A DNA stretch of 63,740 bases, the filler included, from Psammoneis japonica (lineage: Eukaryota), in the NCBI GenBank assembly GCA_008632985.1. It is 4 parts of 4 records of this genome, joined end to end, with 100 filler letters (N's around TTAATTAATTAA, not from the genome) between each part and the next. Parts side by side here need not be neighbours in the genome. Positions count along the whole stretch, not along the records: positions 55,157 to 63,740 come from QPGO01000540.1; 3 more parts are not named here. One strand, given 5' to 3'. Positions 1,782 to 63,740 of this stretch are shown piece after piece (the stretch's first letter is position 1; every line of letters starts with the position of its first letter). Made by a program: the position numbers and the translations under genes. The notes under the pieces were generated by a model. It made no database searches. It saw only the letters and a list, made by a program, of their open reading frames with translations, and was not told the origin of the DNA.

Positions 1782-2194
1782 ACTGATTTGGGAGAGTGAA
1801 GCTGATCATCGGAGGTGTGGGCTGTGTGCAAAGCACATGGTACAGTAGCCATACCTTTAGTGCTCTAACTAGCCCAAACATGGTAGCTTAGCTAATCGAT
1901 TAAAACAGAAATCTGGGCGTGTCGTGAAGGAGCAGCCCAACCGCTCTCTCCTTGACTCCAGTTTAACGTTGCGGGTGAGCCTGCCATCTGCTATCACCGC
2001 TCACCGCCCGTCGTGATCATGCGAGAGGGTTCTCTGCAGTTTGCTGAATACTATACTTCACCCTATTGTTTACCACGTGTGATATAATCATGTTCGTATT
2101 GACGAGCTGCTTGGTGGTTTGAACACGTCTAATGCCTTGCATGTGCAACAAGGGACTCTTCCAATAGCTGAAAGAAACCGGGAAGAGTGCTGCG

Positions 2195-3303
2195 CTAAGA
2201 CTTTGCTACAGCGGTACTTGCCACAATCTGCTCAGCCGTTTTGACGTATTTGAGGAATATTTCCTTTGTCTGCTCATAAAGCTCTTCTCGGTATCGTCTG
2301 CTATCGATTCTGACCACGGTTCTTTTGTCGTTGGAACTCCATTCGAAACACCGGTCGAAATCAATATGCCAAAGTTTTCCCGTGCTGTCAACCAATACTT
2401 GAAAGTCCCGCACAAGGCAACTTATATCCTGGATAAGTTCCAGGGTTTTGTTTATCTCGTGCCTAAAGTTACGAAGGAAGGATTCGCTGTCGCTCGACGC
2501 GGCCACAATTTCATCCAAATGCCCCTTTGCGTGTCTGTATTTGTTGGAGGTACAACCGAGGAGCAGCGACGGTTGAGGAGCCATTTTTACTCTATACACG
2601 GCAGCCATTCCTTTGGCATAGTAGCCTTTCTTGATCATTTTCTGTCGGGACTCTCTCATTAAAACTCTGTTCATCTCAGATGCATCATTCTGGCTTAGAT
2701 GTATAGACTGAACTGGACCAAACAGAGTGGATATCGAGTACTCCTTTTCAACCATTCTCGCAAGATCCCAAGCTTTTTCTCCGCTCGCAACAAAAAAGTT
2801 TAGTTGTTCTTGTGTGACCAAATAACCAAAGCGGGGACTTCGCCCTTTTCGCGGAAAAAACATTTCTCCACCCCACAGTTTGCCGGAACAGTTAGATTCA
2901 AGTTCTCCAATGCAAATTTCTTTGGAGAAGAATGATCTGAGTCAGACACGAGTTTGACTCCTTTTCATTTCTTGTGCCGTTTCTTTGTCCTCTTTGTTCG
3001 TATTTGTCAATATCGCCTTTGTACATGTCTACTTGCTCTTGACCTTCTCGATTGTCCTGCTTGTTGCTTCTATGTTTTTCGCGTGTGTCCGACAAAGATT
3101 GCCTTTTTGATGTGGGCGGAAGATCCTTCGTGGCAGAATCTTTCCTGATGGACTTGGATAGCGCTGCATATAGAGACGGTGAGTGTAATGACAGAGGGAG
3201 TTGAATTGATGTTGCTTAGAGACACGAAGGAAACTCGGAGAATCAGTTGAACGGTACTGTATCCAACGATGAACACGACGTAGACTAGTCGACGACTCAG
3301 CAT
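2195..3303 (-). pseudogene. Copy A of membrane-anchored hypothetical protein; frameshifted (real or assembly indels)
   Basis: ORFs 3070..3303, 2898..3095 and 2195..2863 together reproduce the copy C protein. Tyr codons are retained. Confidence 0.75.
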
Positions 3304-3404
3304 TTTGGAGAGGTTTCAATTACAGTCTAGTATACCTCAGCAACAGCGATGATAAATCCATCATCCAGTCTTTTTGGCAATCCTTTCATGGTCGTTGCCG
3401 CGGA

Positions 3405-4350
3405 AAAGCAAAAGGGAAAAGCAGAAAAAAGGTGGGGATTGATTCGACCGTTGGGCGCGCACAAAATTTTGATGACGACGAGCGTTGAAAGAGCGAGCAC
3501 GCAAGAGCAAAAAATGATGGCACGCACGAATTTTGTGCGCCATGAGCACACCAAATGCAATGGGGCAGCAAGTTCCACTTCTTCCTTGCCATTCAACCAC
3601 GTCCATGCCACTGGCAATGGGGAAGCCATCCAAGCCTTCTTCATCTGGTGGGGTCATGGGGAAGCCATCCCAGCCTTCATCTGGTGGGGTCACCCAAACA
3701 CTCCTCTGTGTTTGCCTGGACAAACTCGCGCCCATCTCCTTGTTTTGACCCGTGTCCCTTCTTGTCAGTGATGTCATGCACAACACATCATGGACAAATC
3801 ATCAACACATCTTCTTCTCTCATTTTGCTTGCTGCAGGAGACACTGTGTTTTCCACAGGCAAATGCAGAGAGTGCAGCCAGGTGGGCATGCTTGCCTCTT
3901 GAAAGAAAGAGCTGCAAAATGCTGGCGCTCTTGTTGTTTGCAGTGGAGACAACTCTGGCCTGCATCATTCTTGGTGTGATTCACATTGAGATTGTGTTCT
4001 CTGGCTGGCAATGAGCCATTGTTGCTGAAGAAGTCATTGTGAAAATTGTTGCTGGTCAAAGAGACACACCACCGCAGATGTCTTGAAACACAAGACTTTG
4101 GACCCAGCTTCTGTTTGCTCTCATTCTGAATTTCTTTGACATGTGCCAGCTTCATTGGCTTGCTGCTGTCAAGATGGAAGAAACCTCTTTCTGTCAAGTT
4201 GAGCCTCTCGATGCCTCTCATTTCTTTGACCACTCTCCTTTCAACACCAGCGCAGTTGGGGCAATGTCCCCCTTTTGTTGGGAGCTCCTTCCAACACACC
4301 CCACAAGATGATGGAGAGCACATTTCTTTGCAAGTCATGTCAGCATTGGG
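3405..4350. mobile_element. TpA-depleted unclassified insertion upstream of copy A (second copy ~6090-7040)
   Basis: Homology of copies A/B to copy C ends at gtcgttgccgcgga (~3404). The following ~950 bp is present twice, absent upstream of copy C, and almost TA-free. Confidence 0.55.
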
Positions 4351-4748
4351 TCATCATGCATCAGAGCTGTGTGCTGTGTGCAAAACACATGGTGCAGCAG
4401 CTGCACCTTAAAGGTCCTGACCAGCCCAACCATGGTGGCTTTTAGGCAGTCATTTTTAACAGAAATCGTGGCATGTCATGCTGGAGCAACCGCTCTCTTC
4501 TTGACTCCAGGTTGACATCGAGGGAAAAGCTGCCATGTGCTGTCCCCGCTCACCACCCATTGCATCATGTGAGAGGGGTCTCAGCAGTTTGCCGCACACA
4601 CTGCTTTGCCCCTTTTGATTTAAACCAGTCGACTCAAATGTGGCATGCACAAAGACATGAAAGCACAACATGAAGGCCAACGGGCTGTGAGGAAGCCCAA
4701 AAGCCAAGGGCTTCAATCTGTGTGTGACAGATGAAAAAGGACATCTGT

Positions 4749-5987
4749 TCATTTTGATGAGCCACTTTGTGGGTTGAGCATGTGTGTTGGCTGCCTCAAT
4801 GGCATTTCTGCAGGAGAAGATTTGCGTGTGAAATGAGAGACTCTTCCATTGGCTGAAAGAACCGGGAAGAATGCGGCGCTGAGCTTCACCACAGTGTTGT
4901 TTGCCACAATCTGTCCAGCCATTTTGACATGATTGAGAAATGTTTCCGTTGCCTGCTTGCAATGCTCTTCTCGGTGTTGCCGCTTGTCGATTCTGACAAC
5001 GTTTCTTTTGTCATTGGAACTCCATTCGAAACACCGGTCGAAATCAACATGCCAAAGTTTTCCCATGCTGTCAACCAATGCTTGAAAGTCCCGCACAACA
5101 CAACTTACATCCTGGACAAGTTCCAGGGTTTTGTTTGTCTTGTGCCTAAAGTTACGAAGAAAGGATTCACTGTCGCTCGACGCGGCCACAATTTCATGCA
5201 AATGCCCCTTTGCGTGTTTGCATTTGTTGGAGGTACAATCGAGGAGCAGTGACGGTTGAGGAGCCATTTTTGCTCTGTGCACGGCAGCCATTCCTTTGGC
5301 GCAGCAGCCTTTCTTGATCATTTTCTGTTGGGACTCTCTCATCAAAACTCTGTTCATCTCAGATGCATCACTCTCGCTTGGATTTGTAGACTGAACTGGA
5401 CCAAATGGAGTGGACATCGAGTGCTCCTTTTCAACCATTCTCGCAAGATCCCAAGCTTTTTCTCCACTCGCAACAAAAAAGTTTAGTTGTTCTTGTGTGA
5501 CCAAATGACCAAAGCGGGGACTTCCGCCCTTTTCGTGGAAAAAACACTTCTCCACCCCACAGCTTGCCGGAACTGTCAGATTCAAGTTCTCCAATGCAAA
5601 TTTCTTTGGAGAAGAATTGTCCGAGTCGGACATGAGTTTGACGTCCTTTTCATTTCTTGTGCCTTCATTTTGTCTTTTTTGTTCATGTTTTTCAATGTCG
5701 CCTCTGTGCATGTCTATTTGCTCTTGACCTCCTTGATTGTCCTGCGTGTTGCTTCCATGTTTTTTGCGTGTGTCTGACAAAGATTGCCTTTTTGATGCGG
5801 GCGGAAGATCTTTCGTGGCAGGATCTTCCCTGATGGACTTGGACAGTGTTGCATGTAGAGACGGTGAGTGCAATGACAGAGGAGTTGAGTTGATGTTGCT
5901 CAGAGACACAAAGGAAACTTGGAGAATCAGTTGAATGGTGCTGCATCCAACGATGAACACGACATGGACCAGTCGACGACTCAGCAT
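4749..5987 (-). pseudogene. Copy B of the same gene: open frame but hypermutated (no Tyr, original stop lost)
   Basis: 412-aa ORF colinear with copy C. All Tyr are replaced by His/Cys. The end GCT TAG appears as CTC AGC (1-bp deletion plus TA->CA). Confidence 0.8.
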
Positions 5988-7566
5988 TTTGGAGAGGTTT
6001 CAATTACAGTCTAGCACACCTCAGCACAACAACAACGACAAATCCATCATCCAGTCTTTTTGGCAATCCTTTCATGGCCGTTGCCACGGAAAAGCAAAAG
6101 GGAAAAAAGGTGGGGATTTGACCATTGGGCACGCACAAAATTTAAAATTTTGATGAGCTTGGAGACGAGCGTTGAATGAGCACGCAAGCAAGCAAAAAAT
6201 GATGACACGCACGAATTGTGCGCTGTGAGCACACCAAATGCAATGGGGCAGCAAGTTCCACTTCCTTGCCATTCAACCATGTCCATGCCACTGGCAATGG
6301 GGAAGCCATCCAAGCCTTCTTCATCTGGCGGGGTCGTGGGGAAGCCATCCAAGCCTTCATCTGGTGAGGTCATGCAAACACTCCTCTGTGCTTGCCTGAA
6401 CAAACTCGCGTTCATCTCCTTGTTTTGAGCCATGCCCCTTCTTGTCAGTGATGTTGTGCACAACACATCATGGACAAATCTTCAACACATCTTCTTCTCC
6501 CATTTTGCTTGCTGCAGGAGACAGGCCACTGTGTTTTCCACAGGCAAATGCAGAGTGCAGCCAGGTGTGGGCATGCTTGCCTCTTGAAAAGAAGAGCTTC
6601 AAAATGCTGGTGCTCTTGTTGTTTGCAGTGGAGACAACTCTGGCCTGCATCATTCTTGGTGTGACTCACATTGAGAACATGTTCTCTTGCTCTCAATGAG
6701 CCATTGTTGCTGAAGAAGCTGTTGTGAAAATTGTTGCTGGTCAAAGACACACCACCGTGGATGTCTTAAAACACGAGACTTTGGACCCATCTTCTGTTTG
6801 CTCTCATTCTGAATTTCTTTGACACATGCCAGCTTCATTGGCTTGCTGCTGTCAAGATGGAAGAAACCTCTCTCTGTCAAGTTGAGCCTCTCAATTTCTC
6901 TCATTTTTTTGACCACTCTCCTTTCAACAGCAGCACAGTTGGGGCAATGTCTCCCTTTTGTTGGGAGCTCCTTCCAACACACACACACCACACAAGATGA
7001 TGGAGAGCACATTTTTTTGCAAGTTGTGTCAGCATTGGGTCATCATGCATCAGAGCTGTGAGCTGTGTGCAAAACACATGGCACAGCAGCCACACCTTAA
7101 ATGCCTTGACTGGCGCAACCATGGTGACTTTTGGGCAGTTGTTTTTAACAGAAATCGTGGCATGTCGTGCTGGAGCAACCACTCTCTTTTTAACTCCAGG
7201 TTGATGTTGAGGGTGAGCCTGCCACATGCTGTCCCTGCTCTCCACCCATTGCATCATGCAAGAGGGTTCTCTGCAGTTTGCCACACACACTGCTTCACCC
7301 CTTTTGTTTTGAACCAGTCGACTCAAAAGTGGAACACAGAAAGACATGAAAGCACATTATGAAGGTTAACCAGCTGTGAGGAAGCCCAAAAGCCAAGGGC
7401 TTCAAACTGTGTGTGACAAAGGACAAAGGACATCTGTTCATTTTGATGAGCTGCTTTGTGGTTGAGCGCGTGTAATGGCTGCCTCAATGGCATTTCTATA
7501 GGAGAAGATTTGCATGTGCAATGAGAGACTCTTCCATTGGCTGAAAGAACCAGGAAGAATACGGCA

Positions 7567-8676
7567 CTAAGCTTTCACCACAGTGTTGTTTGCCACAATC
7601 TGTTCAGCCATTTTGACATAATTCAGAAATGTTTCCTTTGCCTGCTCGTAACGCTCTTCTCGGTAACGCCGCTTGTCGATTCGGACAACGTTTCTTTCGT
7701 CGTTGGAACTCCATTCGAAACACCGGTCAAAATCAATATGCCAAAGTTTTCCCGTGCTGTCAACCAATACTTGAAAGTCCCGCACAAGGCAACTTATATC
7801 CTGGATAAGTTCCAGGGTTTTGTTTATCTCATGCCTAAAGTTACGAAGAAAGGATTCGCTGTTGCTTGATGCAGCGACAATTTCATGCAAATGCCCCTTT
7901 GCGTGTTCGTATTTGTTGGGGGTACAACCGAGGAGCAGCGACGGTTGAGGAGCCATTTTTACTCTAAACACGGCAGCCATTCCTTTGGCATAGTAGCCGT
8001 CCTTGATCATTTCCTGTCGGGACTCTCTCATTAGAACTTTGTTCATCTCGGATGCATCATTCTGGCTTAGATGTATAGACTGAACTGGACCAAACAAAGT
8101 GGATAACGAGTACTCCTTTTCAACCATTCTCGCAAGATCCCAAGCTTTTTCTCCGCTCGCGACAAAAAAGTTGAGTTGTTCTTGTGTGACCAAGTAGCCA
8201 AAGCGGGGATTTTCTCCCTTTTCGCGGAAAAAACATTTCTCCACCCCACAGCTTGCCGGAACAGTTAGATTCAAGTTCTTCAAAGAAAAGCTGGTTGGAG
8301 AAGAATGATCTGAGTCAGACACGAGTTTGAAGTCCTTTTCTTTTTGTGTGCCGTTTCTTTGTCCTCTTTGTTCGTATTTGTCAATATCGCCTTTGTACAT
8401 GTCTACTTGCTCTTGATCTTCTCGATTGTCTCGCTTGTTGCTTCTATGGTTTTCGCCGGTGACTGACAAAGATTGTTTCTTTGATGAGGGTGCAAGGTCC
8501 TTCGTGGCAGGGTCCTCTCTGATGGACTTGGGTAGCGTCAAAGATATAGACGGTGAGTGCAATGACAGAGGAGTTGAATTGATGTTGCTTAGAGACACGA
8601 AGGGAACTCGGAGAAGCAGTTGAACGGTGCCGTATCCAACGATGACAATGACGTAGACTAGCCGACGACTCAGCAT
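7567..8676 (-). CDS. Copy C, intact 369-aa hypothetical type-II membrane protein with a possible atypical kinase-like C-terminal domain
   Basis: Starts MLSRRLVYVIVIVGY (N-terminal hydrophobic anchor, start shared with copies A/B). Low-complexity stem, then CGVEKCFF and DFQVLVDSTGKLWHIDFDRC motifs. Confidence 0.75.
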   Translation of the reverse strand: MLSRRLVYVIVIVGYGTVQLLLRVPFVSLSNINSTPLSLHSPSISLTLPKSIREDPATKDLAPSSKKQSLSVTGENHRSNKRDNREDQEQVDMYKGDIDKYEQRGQRNGTQKEKDFKLVSDSDHSSPTSFSLKNLNLTVPASCGVEKCFFREKGENPRFGYLVTQEQLNFFVASGEKAWDLARMVEKEYSLSTLFGPVQSIHLSQNDASEMNKVLMRESRQEMIKDGYYAKGMAAVFRVKMAPQPSLLLGCTPNKYEHAKGHLHEIVAASSNSESFLRNFRHEINKTLELIQDISCLVRDFQVLVDSTGKLWHIDFDRCFEWSSNDERNVVRIDKRRYREERYEQAKETFLNYVKMAEQIVANNTVVKA

Positions 8677-8757
8677 TTTATTTCCTGTCACAGTTGAGCA
8701 ACAACGATGATAAATCCATCCTCCAGTCTCTTGGTAATCTTCAAGGTCGTTGTAGCG

Positions 8758-8784
8758 GATGATGATGATGATGATGATGATGAT
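8758..8784 (+). repeat. (GAT)n microsatellite, ~9 units
   Basis: gatgatgatgatgatgatgatgatgat, seen directly. Confidence 0.95.
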
Positions 8785-18380: not shown

Positions 18381-18480
18381 NNNNNNNNNNNNNNNNNNNN
18401 NNNNNNNNNNNNNNNNNNNNNNNNTTAATTAATTAANNNNNNNNNNNNNNNNNNNNNNNNNNNNNNNNNNNNNNNNNNNN
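18381..18480. other. Assembly gap with artificial six-frame stop linker TTAATTAATTAA (18425-18436)
   Basis: Identical linker inside N-runs at three places in the window. Confidence 0.97.
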
Positions 18481-28170: not shown

Positions 28171-30200
28171 CCTTGGGCTGTCTGGCTGGGGAAGCAAGTG
28201 CTGCGGGTGTGCATGCTTTTTTTGTGCATGTGTCCTGTTCTCATTTCTCAGTGATCTTCAGATTTTTCTCTGTCTTTTCATCAAGTCATTTCAGTGGCTT
28301 GTCTCTTTTGCAAAACAAGTCTTTTCAATGACTTGTTGCATGTGTCTGGGCTTGGTTTGCATTCCGCACAATTCTGTGAGATGTCCAAGAGAGCAGCTCC
28401 AAGGGACCTGTTCTGTCTCATCTCACAACTCAAGCATCTGGGTGGTTGAGCCTCATTTCACTCACAATTGGCCTCTGAGGACAATTCATTTTTCATTTCC
28501 ATGTGTGCTTCCTCCACATTGTCAAACAGCACAAGTGTTTCAGTCAGTTTTGTGGACAAAGCAGTGAAACAGGGTCCAAAGTTGATGCCATCGTGTGGGC
28601 TGAGTTTCGCTTCTTCTCTCACGTGTCTTCTTGAACTCAAGTGCCGCCAACGAATGTTTTGCACAATCTGTTGTGCACAATTTGTGCTCACATGTTCAAA
28701 CAAAACACCACTTGTGTCTTGTTCAAGAGCCAACTTGTGTGCAAGAATGCGTGCTTTGTGTTTTTCTTTTGGGCATCGCAGCAGCTGCAAATCGCTCATC
28801 AGAAAACTGAGCTCTTGTCTCACAGCTCCACCCCATTTGGTGATTGATGGCTTGGTGCATCATCAGTTGTGAATGCATGGGTGCACACATGAGACCTTTC
28901 CATGTGCCCACAACAACACATTTGAAAATTGTCATGTCTCAGCTGTTGAAAATGGTGCCTCAAGTTCAGACAACGCGTTTCATGCTAAAAGGGTCATTTT
29001 TTTTCGTGCAAACACACACCCAAGTCTGGAACAAGTCTCAAGTGGAGAGTGGAAGGAGCACTTGCTTGAAAAGGTGCCCTTGTTTTTGCCACTCACAGCA
29101 AAGCAGCTGCCCACACCAGCGTTGGCAACACAGTCTGTGCGCACATTGTGGGGAAGTGGGGCCAAAGGAGGGCACACAAGAGGAGAGAGCTGCCAGGGGG
29201 TGGCAACCTTTGCGGCTTCCACTTGCCAATCATTTTCACTGTGTGCCTTTTTTCCCACTTCTCACAGTGCAAAAGATTCATTCCAAAAAAAGTGCAAGAC
29301 ATCATCACCCGCTTCAGTCGTGACAACAGGTGGCCGTGTCGATTTTGTGCGGCGGCGATTGGCCCGGTTTTTTCATTCATTCGGAACCCGGAACAAGGCA
29401 TTCCAGTGCGTCAGGCTCGCTCGCGAGAGGACGCACAATGACGTCAGAAAGATCAGATCGAATGAATCTTTCTGAGATTCTCGCGAAACAAGCTCGCTCG
29501 CACGCAGAAGTCTGCGGGCCCAATGTCGCACGGATTCCCACCTGCGTCTGGAACGCGTCTGCTCCCATTTCTTGTCTCCCAGTCCTGGACAAACTCTCCC
29601 TCACTTGCTGGCAAATCAAGTGCTCTGTTGTGTGCAGTGATCTTTCTGTTGTTTCATTTCTTTGAGGTTTGAACGAGGTTTTCCACTTGATGAGCGACAG
29701 CCTGTGGTTTGGCACTCTTCCTTTGACTTCCTTTTGGCTTCCTTCATGGCTCTCATGTGAATTTTTCCCAAATGCAACTGTCCTCTGTGGTGGTGGTGTA
29801 ACCAACGTGTGTGTCACCAGCAATGCCACATCAAACTCCAAGTGTTGTGTTGTGCTCTCTGCACCAACTTTTTCCGTCGGGCGTCTCCTCAGGGAGACGC
29901 CAGTTCAGGCCAATCGCGTGTGTTTCTGCCACATCTCCAAGCGGGGTGCACTGGAAGTGTGGGTCAGCTGGCGCCAGTGTTGCTGGGCAAAGGTGCAACA
30001 GCACTTAAAATTGGGTTTGTTTTTTTTTCCTCACCGACCACAGTGCGGCGTGATGTGCTGGTGCTCAGTTTCACGGCGTTCTTCTTTTTGCGTCATTCTT
30101 GCGCGAGTTCGCAGTGACGTCAGAAAGATCGGATCGGATGAATCTTTTGAGATTCCTCTCCCTCCGACCTCCGAGGCGACGCACGACGCACGGCATCACA
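28170..30200. mobile_element. Decayed repeat mosaic including a right-end remnant (29430-29559) related to the GAC-TIR family
   Basis: ctcgcacgcagaagtctgcgggcccaatgtcgcacggattcccacctgcgtctggaacgcgtc matches the MITE right end. tgacgtcagaaagatc.gatcg.atgaatctt occurs at ~29439 and ~30115. Confidence 0.6.
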
Positions 30201-36813: not shown

Positions 36814-36913
36814 NNNNNNNNNNNNNNNNNNNNNNNNNNNNNNNNNNNNNNNNNNNNTTAATTAATTAANNNNNNNNNNNNNNNNNNNNNNNNNNNNNNN
36901 NNNNNNNNNNNNN
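36814..36913. other. Assembly gap with TTAATTAATTAA linker (36858-36869)
   Basis: N-run with linker. Confidence 0.97.
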
Positions 36914-48412: not shown

Positions 48413-48802
48413 GACGCGTTCCAGGTCTAGGTGGGACCTCGTACTACTGAACTGTGACATCGATAGTTTTTTGAATCACGTCGTATGTCGCGCACGTAGA
48501 TTTCTACGTGATTTTTTCGATATTTTGTGTCATTTTACGGTACACTTATTGAGCGATCCGTCCAACAACTTTTGACATTTTTTGTTACAGCGCGATTCTA
48601 TAATGTCTTAAGAATCGCGTAGGGCAGGCGCATTTGCAAAAACGTCGAGTGGCAAGAGGCATAATTGTGCCACAAACTTGGCAGTTTATTTGATGTTGAA
48701 GATAAATATATCCATTAATTAAATTCTCGTACTACGGAGCTCGCACGTAGAATTCTACGGGCCCAATGTCACACGGAGTCCCACCTAGGACTGGAACCCA
48801 TC
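48413..48802. mobile_element. MITE copy 1 (390 bp), TpA intact; ~25-bp TIRs; 4-bp TSD CAGC
   Basis: cagc|gacgcgttccaggtctaggtgggac ... gtcccacctaggactggaacccatc|cagc. Confidence 0.9.
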
Positions 48803-55055: not shown

Positions 55056-55156
55056 CNNNNNNNNNNNNNNNNNNNNNNNNNNNNNNNNNNNNNNNNNNNN
55101 TTAATTAATTAANNNNNNNNNNNNNNNNNNNNNNNNNNNNNNNNNNNNNNNNNNNN
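55056..55156. other. Assembly gap with TTAATTAATTAA linker (55101-55112)
   Basis: N-run with linker. Confidence 0.97.
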
Positions 55157-55484: not shown

Positions 55485-55875
55485 GACGTGTTCCAGGTCC
55501 AGGTGGGACCTCGCACTGCTGAACTGTGACATCAACAGTTTTTTGAATCACGTCGCATGTCACGCACGTAGATTTCTGCGTGATTTTTTCGACATTTTGT
55601 GTCATTTTACGGCGCACTTGTTGAGCGATCCGTCCAAAAACTTTTGACATTTTTTGTTGCAGCGCGATTCTACAATGTCTTAAGAATCTCTGCAAGGAAG
55701 GCGCACTTGCAAAAACGTCGAGTGGCAAGAGGCATGATTGCACCACAAACTTGGCTGTTTGTTTGATGTTGAAGACAAACACATCTGTTGGATGAATTCT
55801 TGCACTGCGGAGCTCGCACGTGGAATTCTGCGGGCCCAATGTCACACTGAGTCCCACCTGGGGCTGGAACGCGTT
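55485..55875. mobile_element. MITE copy 2 (391 bp), TpA-eroded; TSD AGCA/GGCA
   Basis: Colinear with 48413-48802; agca|gacgtgttccaggtccaggtgggac ... gtcccacctggggctggaacgcgtt|ggca. Confidence 0.9.
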
Positions 55876-56463
55876 GGCACCTCTCTGTGAAGCAGCATCG
55901 TGTTGGGAGCTCCCCACCAAAGCTGCAAGCCAAAGCTGCAAAGACAATTTTTAACACCAAAGAGAGGTCATGCTGGAGGACATGCTTTTCCATTCATTTG
56001 ACACAAGCAGCACACGGCAGCAGAGAGAGAGAGAGCAACATTTTCAGCTCAAGCTCGTCCGACCATGCTTTTTGGGCAAGCTTGGAGATTTTGCAACGAG
56101 CGCTGGTGCAGCTCTTGTTGTGAGGCAGCTCTCAAAACAAACTGGGTGACGTGTCAAAGTGGTGCTGAAAACACTCTTTGTGGGGTGCTGCTTGGTCATT
56201 GACAACATGCGGGGCTTTTCGCTGGCCAGCTGCGGTCAACAACGAGCTCTTGCTCTCTGGGTTGTGCTGCAGAGCATCTCAACTGCTTGCTTTTGGTGCC
56301 AAAAAAGTCTTGCCCACCACTCTCCCTTTTGGCACCTTGTCAATCCCTTCCACCTGCGCTTGTTCAAGCTGCAGCACACAGGCACAGCTCTCTGTGAGAG
56401 AGCTGGCACTGGCACACCCTCTGGCTTCTTTTTCGTTGGCGCCTCTTGCATCCACCAGCACTG

Positions 56464-59400
56464 GACGCGTTCCAGCTCTAGGTGGGACCTCGCACTACTG
56501 AACTGTGACATAATTATTTTTTATCATCCGTCGTATGTTTCGCACGTACATTTCTACGTGTTCTGTTATAAAAAATTGTTCCACACTGCCTGTTTTGCGA
56601 AGCCAAAGGCTTTCTGTTATCTACATTTATGTCAATAAAAATGCGCTGGGTATATTCTTTAATGTCTGAAGAACATACCCGGGCATACTGTAAAGAATGT
56701 ACTTCAAGTGTGGAGGAGGAGATACGTTCGCAAAATTGCCTCTTTTTCTGTTGGCTATCATTCATATATCCATTGCTTAATAATTTTAGTACGGAGCTCG
56801 CACGTAGAATTCTACGGGCCCAACTACAGGAGGAATAAACAGGCGTCAGACGCCAGTTTCCTAGCGTTTTTCTGGTAATATAGTTATGTAGGAATTGTGT
56901 ACATTTTCAACGAAGAGATGAGGTTGGATTGAAAAATGCGACAGCAGACGCACAAAAACGCGACACAACGCGACAAGCGACAATGGAGCTGCAATGGCAT
57001 GCACCCAGATGAACGAGTGCCAGTGGATGCACTGCTGCACAACACTCAAGTGCTGTGCTTTTACTCCTGTTGCTGTGTGCCACTTGCCTTGATTTGGGCT
57101 GTTCGCTGCAACCAGCGCAACAGCTCTTCTTGATTGCGGAAACAAGAGATCCGTCCGATCTGTTTGTCGCTCCGCTCTGATTGGTGCTTTTCCTTTCGCC
57201 CGTGGTGGTTGGCATTTTGCAAGGCAACACAACAATTTTAAATTCAAACTGTGCCATGTCAGGATCATTGTAAAATTCAAACAATGCACAAGACCAAAAA
57301 CAGTTCTCGCAACCGCTGCAAAATGATGCACTTTTCATTCATCAGATGCAGACTGACACATTTTTGGGAAAGCAATCATGCGTGAGACTAACAACAACGC
57401 AACAGTTGATGCCATTTCATTGTTGAATGCAGCCAAGAGCACATGTCATGCCAGCGAGCTTGTCAAGGAGGCAAAGGCTTTCGCGAAGGAGGAGTTTGCG
57501 TCAACAGCAGCTGCTCGCAAGTTGTGTTCTGTTTTGAGCGTCGTCTCGGAAGCGCTGTCCGCAGTTTCCACCAAAGTTAAATCTTGCGCCACTGTTTGCG
57601 CCCCCGTCGCAAGCAATCCATCTTGTGCCATGAAGAGGTTGAGAGCTGCCGCACCAACAGCTGCGAATGTCAAGGATGACTCCTCCCAAGCCCTCACAAA
57701 TTTGAAACAGCTGATTGCGGATTCGAAAGGGACGAGAGAAGCAACAGAATCAATGCCACGACGCTCCAGCAAGAGGAAGGCTGCAAGCATTGGCGCTGAA
57801 GACACTGACGACATCAAAGTGATTCCAGACCTCCCCCCACCCCCAACAGAAGGGAAGATGTGCCCCACCTCGACGGCGTGCCAACTGTTCAGTGAGTGCA
57901 AGCACAAGAAAAGGAAGGGAGAGCTCTTTGCACACTGGTTGCGAAGCGGGTGTGTTCCAAAAATGTCAAGGCAGAACTGGCACAAGATTGTGAAGACGCA
58001 TTCTGAAGGCAAGAATGCAAGGGAATGGGATGACAACGGCAGCAGGAAAACTGGACGAAGGCCTCTTGCGGAAGTGGCCGAGGTCATTGACTTTGTCGAC
58101 CGATTCAGACAAGGTGCTGCAATGGGAAACAAAGAGATTCAGGACATGCTTGTGAGGATGCAAGCTGACAGAGACTCAAAAGAAGGCTGCTGTGATCTCG
58201 GAATTTTGAAAGCGACCTCCAAGACGATCAACAACTGCAAAACACTGGCAGCTTGCGTCATCCCGACCACCCTGATGGAGCGAGCTGTGGTCAAGTCGGA
58301 GGTCCGCGAGGTTGCTGAAAAATCCCTTTGAAGCACAGCTGCTTTCTTGATGGTTGCCGCTGCCACCATGTTCGAAATTGGCAAGCTCCAGACTGGTCGC
58401 TCACCAGTTTCCAAGGCCACTCGAGGGGCGCAAACCTTCGAACGTCTTGCATCTCAATGCTGCGGTGGCCCACCAGTTCGCCCCTTGCACTCTTGTGACA
58501 CTCATTCCACCGACAACAGCGGCGTCTGTTTTGTTTCGGAGGTGACAGAGCAGGGGTGCAGCTGGAGAATCGACAAACAGGATGGTGAGGATGCAAGCAT
58601 TAGATCAAAGTGTGAGCAGCGCAGCAAAAGCTCTCTAATTGGACAACGAGTCCAATTCACCTAGACTGCAACAGCAGAAGGCACCATGGCATCTCCATGT
58701 GTCTCCATTCTCGGACTGAACGATCAAGAATCACCCAAGGAGACCTGCCCAAGCGGTGTGTTAGTTGTTTCGCTGAAAGGGACAGCCATTGGAGGGTCCG
58801 ACCCAAGCAACACTTCAGTTGGTCGAGTTGTGTTTGTCCGCAAGGGAGAAGGCACCGAGACAACGAACTTTAAAAATTACCGTGACACCGTCTGCCGTCC
58901 ACATGTTGAGTCAAAGCGTGATTTGTCGGAGGGAATGCCAACACCGGAAGATGAAAATGCTGCAGGGTGGCAAGATGGCGGCGGTCCTCAGCTGAAGGCT
59001 ATCACAGCTGAAGAGTCGATGGAGAAGGATGAGGAAATCAACCTCACAGCAAACAAGCACTCTGCAAGCAGAAGCGCGACTGAACAGTGCGCTGACCTCA
59101 TGAGGATTTTTGCTCTCATACACGCGGAATGCAAGAAACTCACCGCCAAAAAGCCACCCATGATCGGTCACAAGAAACATGTTCATCGTGTCTTCCATGA
59201 ATTACAGACATCCGGCCGAATCAATCTGTCCAAGGACAAGCTCAATTCCATGATGGATCTGATCATCTGTGCGTTGGAAATCCAAACCAAGTCTGTTGCT
59301 CCCACTCGTGTTCGTGATGGCTTCATTGCCGCTGGGGCAATCGACTCAGAAACGCTCGAATGGCCAGACTTCAACATGATGCTTGCAACGCTTCGGCGCA

Positions 59401-61247
59401 AGATCACAGAGCAAGAAGTTGAGTTAATCCAGAAGTCTTTTAATGTGATGATGGATGCACAATTGATGTTTGGCAAGGCACCTGAGACGCTCTTTGATGA
59501 ACTCGGGTTTCCCGAGGACGAGGCTGCTGACAGCTCAAAGTGACCGAGACGTTCCGAGTCAGACGCACACTCCCGCGCCATGTGTCTGTCAGCGGACAAA
59601 GTGCGAAAGGCAAGAGTTGAGAAGATGCTTCTAGAGGCAAGGAAGAAGCAAGTCCGTCTTGAGCAAGAGAATGCTGCCATCAGCAAGCTCCTGGCTCTCA
59701 ACAAAGAAGTTGAAGACAAGCTGCCAGCAGACCGATCGACAGCAACGCACCAGTTTCTCTTTCAAAATTTTAAAGCTCCCCAGCTGGGAGCCTTCGTCCA
59801 TGCACGTCTGTTTGTCACGGGCAAGAAACCAAGGAATGCTGAATGGAATGGCATGAAATTCAAGAATGTGAACAAAGGCACACCGGCAATGGCGGAGATG
59901 GGAGAGGACAATCTGTTGACACGTGCCAAGTTGCTGCTCAATGATCCTGTTACATTGAGGGAAAAGGAACCAGAGAGCACAGAAGATGAACAGAGCAACA
60001 TCAACTCCACTCCATCTGTCGTTGATGCTGCTCACACAAATGAATCAGGAGCCCTGGATGCACCACCAAAAGGTGACGACCTTTTAGGCGATGATCGCTG
60101 GATGTCCTCGGTCAAAGAAGAGATCCAGGGTGCGACGTTTCCATCAGGAACAATCGACCCCGCTCTCCCTGGTCATGTTGACAGCCTTGTGTCACATCTG
60201 TGCCTTCGCCTTGACCGTCACCTAAAGACAAGATTCCCAGACCCTGCGCATTGGCATCACTGGTCGTTCCGTTGGGCAAGGCGGAACTCCAGCAGAGTGG
60301 CGGCGATGGCTGCACTCGGAGGGCACGTGAAGAACGATTTGGCCTCAAAGCAACTCTCTGATTCTCTTTTGAATGTGAACATTTCTCGTTTTATGGAAAT
60401 TGACGAGACTTCTTGCATTGCAGGCTCTTGTCTGTTTTATGATGAAGAGAACGGGCGGTTCGTGAGATCGGGCAAGGCAACCTGTCAAACAATGTGGGAG
60501 CGGCATTTGGAACACAGAGCCAAATCCATGAAGGAAGAAAAGGGCTTGCATGAAGCTCACCCTGACAAAGGCAACAAATGTGTCAAACACAAAATTCGAA
60601 AAGGCTTTTTCGAGCAGCTGAAACTTGTGGCGGCCTTGGGTTTCCTCGACTTGAACACGTCTGCGCTTGAAGACACGTCTGGTGATGGCATTTTTGACTG
60701 GGACGACAGCACTCTTGACAACATGAAATCATGGAAAGCCACAGGGACAATGAAGGAAAAAAAGCTTTCAATGGTTGGGTTCTCATTTGAACTTGCACAT
60801 GACTTGATGATCGCGCCGTCGGACAACGTTTCGGAAAACCCTGGATTCGAGCCATGCCACGGTTACATTGGGCAAGATTGAAGGGCGGGGAGAGCAACTC
60901 AAGTAAAAAGCAAAGAATGCTGTAGTTGTTTCATTTAAAATGGCACCCATCATGGCTGTGGCATGGGTCCATCACTTGTGTTGGGCGTGTTGACAGAGTG
61001 CAAGCGCATTTTACATTGTGCGAGTTGGGTGCATTCTCTCTGCGACGCTGCTGTTTTTGTGCGTGTGTTGGTTGGAGCTCATCAGCTCTGGTGCAAAATG
61101 TGCGTAGCTGGCTACAGGGGAATGAGTGTCTTCTGTCGCATTTTCTCCAGATCGAGCGCTTCATCTGACAACTGTTTTTTCCTGACGCGCATTTTTTCCG
61201 CGCGCAGCCAATGACACAAAAAGTCCCACCCAGGGCTGGAACCCGTC
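56464..61247 (+). mobile_element. Full-length 4.78-kb TIR DNA transposon, parent family of the MITEs; 4-bp TSD ACTG
   Basis: actg|gacgcgttccagctctaggtgggac ... gtcccacccagggctggaacccgtc|actg. The left ~360 bp is homologous to the MITE. Confidence 0.9.
57378..60881 (+). pseudogene. ~1167-codon transposase-like frame with three in-frame stops (pogo/DDE_1-like core, GIY-YIG-like C-terminus)
   Basis: ORFs 57378..58331, 58347..58664, 58686..59543 and 59580..60881 are in one frame. Motifs GRRPL, STDNS, WQDGGGPQ, SRSATEQCADLMRIF. Confidence 0.7.
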
Positions 61248-62456
61248 ACTGTGTGGCTGCATGCACTGCTTCTGCACCAAATTCTTGTGCCTTTGCATCA
61301 CACTTTGCTTCAAATTTTTCCTTTTCCTTGAGTGCTGCAGCTGCATTTGGTGATGGTGCTTGTGAAAAATCATTTGTTCTCACCCCACTTTAAAATCCGG
61401 GTTACTTTTGCCTGTTGACTCTCGCTTCGCTCGAGTCGAGTTAATCAAAACCCTCTGCCCACACCAGGTAAAAAAATGCCTGAATTTCTTGCGCAATCGG
61501 CCATTTCAAAGATTGACTGATTTGTCGACTTTTGTGGGACTCTTGAGTTAGTTACATACTAGCATTAAAATATTAGAGTCAAAGTTTGATGGATGTGGAG
61601 TTATCTAGTCTTTTGAAACGCAGAATTAGAGATAACAATGAAATGTTGACAACATTTCATAGCTCAAAATGACTAGTTCTATCTTAGAATAAAATAAAAT
61701 GGCTACTACACTTAGATATCACTAATGTTATTGTTCTACTTTACAATAATGAAACTATCACACTTGTATCTGAGCTTCTTTATCCTCACACACCCTCAAA
61801 ACCGAACACAGAACGATTCTCTTGTCGGCACCAAAATCTGGTGTTGTCGCGCGACCCAAAAGTGTCGTCCATAACGACTCAAAGTGCAGACGATACATTA
61901 TAAGAATCACAGTAACGTATCATAAAAACGCATATTGTTGTTCGTATTGAGCATCAAGTCAATAGAGCGGAGAGTTGCGGAGACTCCTGCGTCGCAATTT
62001 GAGAAAGAGAAAAAGAGGCATCAAAAATGTCATTAGTCAAAAGGCTATCCATAAGGCACAACAAACAGCAAAAATCAAAATTTCAACCACATCATCGTAT
62101 AAATCGTAGTCTTATTGACCTGTCTCGATATTTTTACCTTCTCAATCATGACAGCCGTCGGTGTAAGAATGGACGAGTTCATGGCGGTGACATGGTGCCA
62201 TTTTCGGTGTGGCGATTGTGTTCCGAGACCAGGGAGTCGCCTCAAATCTGTTGAAACTCGAATAATTGATATCTTTCTCGTTAATCAATACATATATTAA
62301 AATGACAATATGTATCATATACGTGTTCTTAATTTTCATAGATTTTAATTAGGCTAATGCTCAACACTTATACACAGATAACATATTCTGATTCTGTTTA
62401 TCCGTAATCCAGATTATTAATTAAAAAGAGTCATTTTCGCCAAAAATTGGCGATAG

Positions 62457-62759: not shown

Positions 62760-63740
62760 TGATGACTGTCAACTGAGCCATTTTCAATCCGCTCTTGGCG
62801 GCGGTGGCGAGACAATCATCGCTCCAGTTGTTGTGACCACCCTTCACTGCCGTGTTGCCCGATTTCAGAGCAACCCTAAACACAACAGTGTCAGTGATCC
62901 TTTCATGCGTTTTGCCATGATGCACAAACGGTTTGCCCTCAACTGCAATCCAATGTGGCTTGAGAGAGCCATCCTCTTTCGAGTGGCAGCGGTTCGTGAG
63001 CTTGACGTGTGCTGGGAAGCGCAAGATGAACTGCCTGGTTCCACGACCAGCTTTGTCTTTGTCCTGAAGCTTGGTTGTCTGCTTTTCATGAGGCATTCCC
63101 ATCTGGTCGCATGCATTGCACCACACCTTTGCTCGCTGGTGAAAGAGTCCACACTCGTTGTGACAGAAATTGAAGGCAAATGGCAAGAATTCAAACAACA
63201 ACTCCTTGCTGCTGTCTAAATGGCAGATGAGTCTCTGCTCAGAGACCGTTGCAGGAGCCGAAAGACGTGCAAGTTGGCACAATCGGGCTGCTGTTGTCAT
63301 TCTTGTGAGCCGTGTGGCTCGAAAGCAAACTGCATCGTGCGCGCACGCGCGGAACTAAAGAGCACACAAAACTGTGCGCGGCAAACTGAACAGTGCGCGA
63401 CATCTCGCACGCACCTAATCCCATTCAAATCCTGTCACTCCCCAGTTTGCTTGAGGAGTCACAGAAACAGATTCAACTTCGGATGGATTGGATGCCTCCG
63501 GAGCAAAGTTCCAAAACATGAGAGGACGGAGAAGGTTCCAGATTTGGGAGCAACCCCAATGCTTGCTGAGAATGTCAGCAGGGTTGCGGGAGCCTTCGAT
63601 GAAGTGGAACTCAAGGTCACCAGAGGCAATTGCCTTGTGCACATGATGGAACAAGAGAGTGGTGTGTCGCTCATGTAACTTGGAGTGCGGGATGGTCGCA
63701 CTGTCCACAACCGACTTGTTGTCACCGAGCGTGCAACTGA
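62760..63740 (-). mobile_element. 3' part of a copia-like retrotransposon: RNase H end (~63480-63740) plus a downstream TA-depleted unknown ORF remnant
   Basis: LGDNKSVVDSATIPHSKLH.RH...FHHV..AIASG...FIEGSRNPADILSKHWG.SQIWNLLRPLMFW is a copia RNase H terminus. Confidence 0.8.

Follow-up and report, generated by a model that had tools for sequence, protein, structure and literature searches.

We analyzed a window of 63,740 nucleotides (i.e., the whole stretch of DNA considered here) from Psammoneis japonica (assembly GCA_008632985.1), in which four contigs are separated by linkers consisting of N and TTAATTAATTAA, the latter providing stops in all six frames, at 18381-18480, 36814-36913 and 55057-55156. 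Since these linkers lie between contigs, features on opposite sides of a linker are not neighbors in the genome. The subject of this study is a 4784-bp transposable element in the last contig (56464-61247, + strand), full-length and formerly autonomous, which is delimited by a pair of terminal inverted repeats (TIRs), by flanking ACTG duplications and by the point at which public contigs diverge from the reference (56464). The left TIR, found by a TIR search, spans 25 bp (56464-56488, + strand) and reads GACGCGTTCCAGCTCTAGGTGGGAC, while the right TIR (61223-61247, − strand), found by the same search and by direct reading, is identical to it at 22 of 25 positions; one of the three differences between them is a TA-to-TG change. 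Directly outside the TIRs, the target-site duplication ACTG was read in the sequence on the left at 56460-56463 and on the right at 61248-61251.

To place these ends in a family, the 25-nt left end GACGCGTTCCAGCTCTAGGTGGGAC was compared with the rest of the window, where it had 5 matches at ≤3 mismatches (48413, 55485 and 56464 on the + strand; 55851 and 61223 on the − strand), compared with 0 in 100 shuffles. These matches bear out the original prediction that three insertions have TIRs of about 25 bp in common. The two further insertions are miniature copies, both on the + strand: copy 1 (48413-48802, 390 bp) is flanked by CAGC at 48409-12 and 48803-06, and copy 2 (55485-55875, 391 bp) by AGCA/GGCA at 55481-84 and 55876-79. 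The right end of copy 1 (48778-48802) has 4 mismatches to the 25-nt end and was found by direct reading; the copy had been recognized previously, and its end is here corrected to 48802 and its length to 390 bp. We also added a fourth, mutated copy that is represented by a solo right end (~29479-29559, + strand; repeat families D17 and D18), for which a left end was looked for and none was found.

The three duplications that had been claimed (ACTG, CAGC and AGCA/GGCA) could all be read at their insertions. Each is 4 bp long, and none of the three is TA, fits AWWT or is TTAA. By our own arithmetic, the chance of two perfect 4-mer duplications together with one matching at 3/4 positions is ~2 in a million. 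Because miniature copy 1 lies in unmutated DNA, its CAGC duplication is original. The element boundaries are confirmed by public contigs of the same organism, in which the sequence of other copies departs from the reference precisely at positions 56464 and 55874/55875. Each copy also carries two subterminal near-palindromes, ACGTAGA(n2-3)TCTACG(T), located at 48493-48512 and 48744-48759 in miniature copy 1 and at 56547-56562 and 56802-56817 in the large element; in mutated copies these read CGCAGAAGTCTGCG, and they are candidate binding sites for the transposase. Together, these observations define a TIR transposon family with variable, non-TA duplications of 4 bp.

The large element contains a transposase pseudogene of 1167 codons (57378-60881, + strand), identified by translation of the open reading frame (ORF), which occupies one frame and needs no intron, its product aligning in single stretches to relatives of ~1200 residues. 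The previously described frame of ~1167 codons is present with its motifs STDNS, WQDG and EQCADLMRIF and with 39 residues between the last two aspartates, but it is broken by three in-frame stops (TGA at 58329-31, TAG at 58662-64 and TGA at 59541-43). When the frame was read through, with X at the stops, and searched against 1.84 billion representative proteins, we recovered 1119 relatives (E≤0.001), of which 437 reach E≤1e-10 and 70 reach E≤1e-30. Some have a length of ~1200 residues and align end to end, the alignment to relative P0002, for example, running over residues 56-1159. Of 174 well-conserved columns, 136 are retained in the window copy; where it has lost a conserved tyrosine (seven columns), it has Cys three times, His twice, and Arg and Phe once each. 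This tyrosine-to-Cys/His pattern is the trace expected from TA-to-TG/CA changes, and the suggestion that His and Cys at such positions derive from Tyr thus holds at five of the seven. The window copy was inactivated by the three stops together with TA-to-TG/CA changes, among them a Tyr-to-Cys change in the GIY motif of the C-terminal domain described below.

Searches of named families returned little for this protein. There was no credible Pfam family in 14 full-length relatives (E≤0.1), and no transposase Pfam family, including DDE_1, DDE_3 and Transposase_1, was matched by any of 65 relatives at E≤1 or by any of the 4 ORF pieces of the window. Sequence searches of Pfam, NCBIfam and the PDB with the window protein and with a 30-sequence profile yielded nothing relevant. 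In a word-indexed homologue search, P0002 retrieved only itself and alignment A2 had no match, while the core of relative P0010 retrieved 35 relatives, of which none has a precomputed Pfam domain and three are named, all as "hypothetical protein." A protein language-model search with the window's own 292-residue piece gave only scores of ≤0.90, to unrelated families, and no related loci were found in viral contigs. The protein family is therefore large and without a name in the databases and literature searched, Repbase and Dfam lying outside that set.

The catalytic core of the transposase was delimited by invariant columns and by a model of P0010, and occupies approximately 58287-59450 (+ strand). 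An alignment of 30 sequences has five invariant columns, D379, G435, D533, D573 and D714, of which D379 (58512-14), D533 (58974-76) and D573 (59094-96) are the triad, encoded on the + strand. The spacing between the second and third aspartates is 39 in 10 of the 11 sequences in which both motifs were located and 41 in the remaining one, in agreement with the DD39D triad first proposed from the sequence. In an AlphaFold2 model of P0010 built with 65 sequences (predicted local distance difference test [pLDDT] 88.9), D142 sits on the first core strand and D311 just past strand 306-310, and the helix after strand 334-338 carries D351, which is the canonical RNase H-like layout. When this core model was compared with 48,161 PDB representatives, the best four matches were Metnase (Z 11.5; 195 residues aligned, root-mean-square deviation [rmsd] 3.1), Mos1 (Z 11.3 and 10.7) and Sleeping Beauty (Z 10.2); retroviral integrases came next after the mariner type, at Z ≤6.6. 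Foldseek likewise placed Mos1 first, at E 0.014. Language-model neighbors, which serve as leads only, were unnamed diatom clusters followed exclusively by DDE_1 (pogo-type) proteins, at scores of 0.78-0.82 (0.78-0.81 for the named ones). The modeled core is nearest to mariner-type transposases, in keeping with its earlier description as pogo-like.

Downstream of the core, the gene encodes a putative C-terminal GIY-YIG-like nuclease domain (approximately 60414-60857, + strand), recognized by the motifs of alignment A4 and by modeling. The consensus of A4 (57 sequences) reads EGxYLYxD(5)WIRSGK..G..R.F..R..EH ... YLxE ... NVS; R208, G210, H226 and E329 are invariant, and G194, Y196 and R222 almost invariant. 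The conserved GxY...(Y/R)xG...R...H/Y...E...N residues of the GIY-YIG superfamily are present in A4, and we take them to correspond to the catalytic residues of I-TevI. In the window copy, the tyrosine of GxY has become Cys (Y1018C, TGT at 60429-31). A model of this domain from relative P0054 (pLDDT 91.3) matched I-TevI best (Z 5.9; rmsd 2.4 over 90 of 92 residues), followed by Hpy188I (Z 5.8), T4 EndoII (5.6), R.Eco29kI (4.5), the N-domain of UvrC (3.8) and PD-T4-3 (3.7); GIY-YIG nucleases made up 6 of the 9 best structural rows. Fold and motif, taken together, argue that the domain has the GIY-YIG fold, and no Pfam GIY-YIG match was obtained in the window ORF piece. Among the 150 matches listed, 15 have a single aligned stretch that covers the DDD core as well as the C-terminal domain, which indicates that the fusion is a property of the family rather than an accident of this locus. 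The gene product therefore comprises a variable N-terminal part, an RNase H-like D...D(39)D core, a helical region and a C-terminal domain with a predicted GIY-YIG fold. In the titles and abstracts that made up our literature set, there was no description of such a fusion.

We then compared the miniature copies with the large element. The miniatures match its left ~360 bp up to GGGCCCAA and then its last ~40 bp from CCAATG, with CCAA as microhomology at the joint, which shows that they derive from the large element by internal deletion. The same joint, 56820 to 61210 with one A between, is present in public contigs of this organism at a summed depth of 291; the miniature form is thus the large element minus 56821-61209. 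The left breakpoint of the deletion is a palindrome-bearing subterminal block (56797-56823, core CGTAGAATTCTACG, repeat family D18), which is present in the miniature copies too, close to their right end. The miniatures are accordingly derivatives of the MITE type (miniature inverted-repeat transposable element), having the same TIRs and duplication length with the coding part deleted. Miniature copy 2 had a summed contig depth (which is not copy number) of 90,000-180,000, and the left part of the large element had 29,000-72,000. The gene, in contrast, had 28-145, with ~28-37 for the pieces that match there uniquely. All that follows is that short copies are very abundant and coding ones rare. 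Another very high-copy repeat lies at 62909-63740, where the summed contig depth reaches 292,000, above that of the miniature element.

A clean empty site for miniature copy 2 was sought in the same public contigs. One 332-nt contig joins 55452 to 55894, but with 15 other letters between them and 13 mismatches, and was rejected as such a site; the contig, in which both the miniature copy and ~30 bp to its left are missing, represents a diverged paralogue or an allele without the insertion.

The dinucleotide profile of the window shows blocks in which the observed/expected ratio of TA falls to 0.00-0.1, with an excess of TG/CA. This ratio is 0.10 over the transposase ORF and 0.03 in the sequence to the left of the large element (55876-56463). 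The first 443 bp of the element, in contrast to its remainder (0.09-0.27), contain 40 TA at a ratio of 1.03, forming a TA-intact island amid depleted sequence with an abrupt boundary at ~56906/56907. Gene conversion from young miniature copies, the border of a mutation zone and an assembly chimera are all possible origins of this island. Miniature copies 1 and 2, with ratios of 0.91 and 0.15, respectively, constitute a before/after pair for the TA-to-TG/CA process. Elsewhere in the window, at 1800-8780, there are ~3 tandem copies of a 2.68-2.69-kb unit with a mutual likeness of 75-94%, which is TA-depleted in part.

Taken together, these results are best read as an unnamed Tc1/mariner/pogo-like DD39D lineage that combines 4-bp duplications with a fused GIY-YIG nuclease, a reading for which Sola was compared by eye and in which Repbase and Dfam lie outside the comparison. 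We think it probable that this dead element is a copy of an autonomous cut-and-paste transposon from a deep, unnamed branch close to Tc1/mariner/pogo, outside that superfamily and, as far as testable, outside Sola1-3. The original prediction of an unclassified lineage is thus supported in part: the TIR family, the non-TA 4-bp duplications and the triad stand, while the GIY-YIG domain, the stops and the deletion origin of the miniatures had been missed. A bolder version, in which this is an unnamed eukaryotic lineage at the level of a superfamily, common in diatoms and marine metagenomes, with a DD39D transposase permanently fused to a second-strand-cutting GIY-YIG nuclease, 4-bp duplications and no need for TA, is conceivable, though we would lean against it.

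On this best reading, we propose that the DDD core would bind the TIRs, cut their 3' ends and join these to phosphates spaced 4 bp apart in the target, in the way that Tc1/mariner enzymes act on TA. The 5' (non-transferred) strand would most likely be cut by the fused GIY-YIG nuclease, so that no single active site would have to cut both strands; such a division of labor would be like that of TnsA and TnsB of Tn7. The miniature copies would be moved in trans by intact relatives. Alternatively, the GIY-YIG domain may be a homing-type nuclease acting on empty sites, by analogy with what PMC9587614 proposes for the extra nuclease of KolobokP.

Several observations weigh against this interpretation. 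The duplications were read at three insertions only, one of them imperfect (AGCA/GGCA), and no relative with element ends was found elsewhere, the two metagenome loci being of only 2.0 and 2.5 kb. The structural matches of the GIY-YIG domain are modest (Z <6), Foldseek ranking R.Eco29kI and I-TevI at the top at E ~1 only, and a Pfam GIY-YIG match was absent in the 14 full-length relatives (E≤0.1); the role in strand cleavage that we give this domain is purely inferred. The contrast between the TA-intact left 443 bp and the depleted rest may be due to chimeric assembly or to gene conversion of the left end. Finally, the lineage may already have a name, its unclassified status being based on target preference and on a comparison by eye with parts of the published Sola1-3 profiles.

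Of the alternative explanations, the one that survives best is that the element is a true member of Tc1/mariner/pogo whose target merely shifted from TA to 4 bp. The structural ranking of Metnase, Mos1 and Sleeping Beauty, the pogo-like motif pattern and the presence of DDE_1 in all ten best named language-model neighbors speak for such membership. However, those language-model (Atlas) scores are all <0.9, none of the 65 relatives matches DDE_1, DDE_3, Transposase_1 or another transposase Pfam family at E≤1, and neither the single protein nor the profile has a sequence match in the PDB. None of the duplications is TA, and the protein is ~3x longer than those of Tc1/mariner/pogo, with a gap between the first and second aspartates that is ~60 residues larger and contains extra strands, and with an added nuclease domain. 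We therefore regard simple membership as improbable.

We consider it less probable still that the element is an ordinary, if divergent, member of Sola1, Sola2 or Sola3, whose features we drew from PMC3627910, PMC3845634 and the supplement of PMC5751038. A DDD triad and 4-bp duplications, the features defining Sola, are both present here. The motif around the second aspartate, D-x4-Q, is one that the element shares with the consensus of Sola1 (SDNCaGQNKN) and with Sola2 (SDG..QYKN), an H-S pair is found after the last strand, like PgHS in Sola1, and the TIRs of insect Sola1 elements, as given in these sources, begin GGACCGTT, those of the present element beginning GACGCGTT. The signature motifs, which we compared by eye on parts of the published Sola1-3 profiles (PMC5751038 supplement), nevertheless argue otherwise. 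The Sola1 consensus (sFDlqkvlslP / ySDNCaGQNKN / FLePgHSk; nodes 1-30 and 82-124 of 124) looks unlike that of the element's family (STDD / W.DG...QL / NKHSASR..EQ..D), with only the generic D-x4-Q and H-S pair shared. The motifs DFAENY, SDG..QYKN and SHGK..CDG, read by eye in part of the published Sola2 transposase alignment, were all missing from P0001, and the Sola3 consensus DNaGcYhs / FsEaQnGK (nodes 94-131 of 131) was not seen by eye in the element's family. A preference for AWWT targets is described as a hallmark of Sola1 in PMC3845634, and AWWT targets have also been reported for Sola2-type elements; here, 0 of 3 duplications fit. The listings and abstracts on Sola contain no mention of a GIY-YIG domain.

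We also weighed whether the large unit was never autonomous, i.e., whether it represents a host or foreign gene captured between miniature ends or a chimera of a young miniature with old DNA. The sharp TA boundary inside the element (~56906/56907) and the low copy of the gene next to the very high copy of the ends would fit such an origin, as would the fact that, among the public contigs listed, a single piece starting at 56841 is the only one to run from the left part of the element into the gene. On the other hand, the gene encodes a transposase-type DDD enzyme of the RNase H fold from a huge family without host-gene annotation, the left end is matched by the right TIR and by the ACTG duplication, and the miniature form is exactly the large unit minus 56821-61209, all of which leaves this explanation very unlikely. 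The remaining families do not fit: piggyBac and Kolobok require, according to PMC9587614, a TTAA duplication, and none of the three duplications is TTAA. Ginger has an integrase-type rve core, but there was no rve match in the window ORF pieces or the relatives, and the fold modeled here resembles mariner (Z 11) more than it does integrases (Z 6.6).

The eukaryotic DDD/E transposons are sorted into ~20 superfamilies (PMC9587614), and a new deep lineage among them is rare. A second nuclease in the transposase chain bears on how enzymes with a single active site cut both DNA strands and, if the proposal is true, would provide a compact two-nuclease system for bench testing. In addition, the family comprises >1000 clusters at 50% identity without annotation, and naming it would clean up many "hypothetical proteins" of algae and metagenomes. 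Within this genome, the TA-erased (old) and TA-intact (young) copies are dated markers of the TA-erasing mutation process.

A parallel to the proposed logic is offered by Tn7, whose DDE enzyme cuts the 3' ends and leaves the 5' ends to another nuclease, resulting in cut-and-paste movement. Tn7 itself is a bacterial element with two separate proteins, the second nuclease being restriction-enzyme-like, and its duplication is 5 bp long; the likeness of TnsA/TnsB to the present element would be in logic only, and we claim no homology. Sola1-3, for which the founding paper is reportedly that of Bao et al. in 2009, resemble the element in their DDD triad, 4-bp duplications, lack of a Pfam family and long transposases, but their signature motifs differ by eye and the element's targets are not AWWT. 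KolobokP, as described in PMC9587614, is likewise a eukaryotic DDD/E transposon lineage with a second, unrelated nuclease; there, however, it is a His-Me finger homing endonuclease in the TTAA-specific Kolobok superfamily, whereas here the putative GIY-YIG nuclease is part of the same polypeptide. Like Tc1/mariner/pogo transposons (IS630-Tc1-mariner), the element has short TIRs, a single transposase whose RNase H-like DDD core is predicted to have the same fold, a short spacing between the second and third aspartates (39 here) and miniature derivatives, and it differs from them in its variable 4-bp duplications in place of TA, its protein of ~1170 residues, the extra strands between the first and second aspartates and the fused GIY-YIG-like domain.

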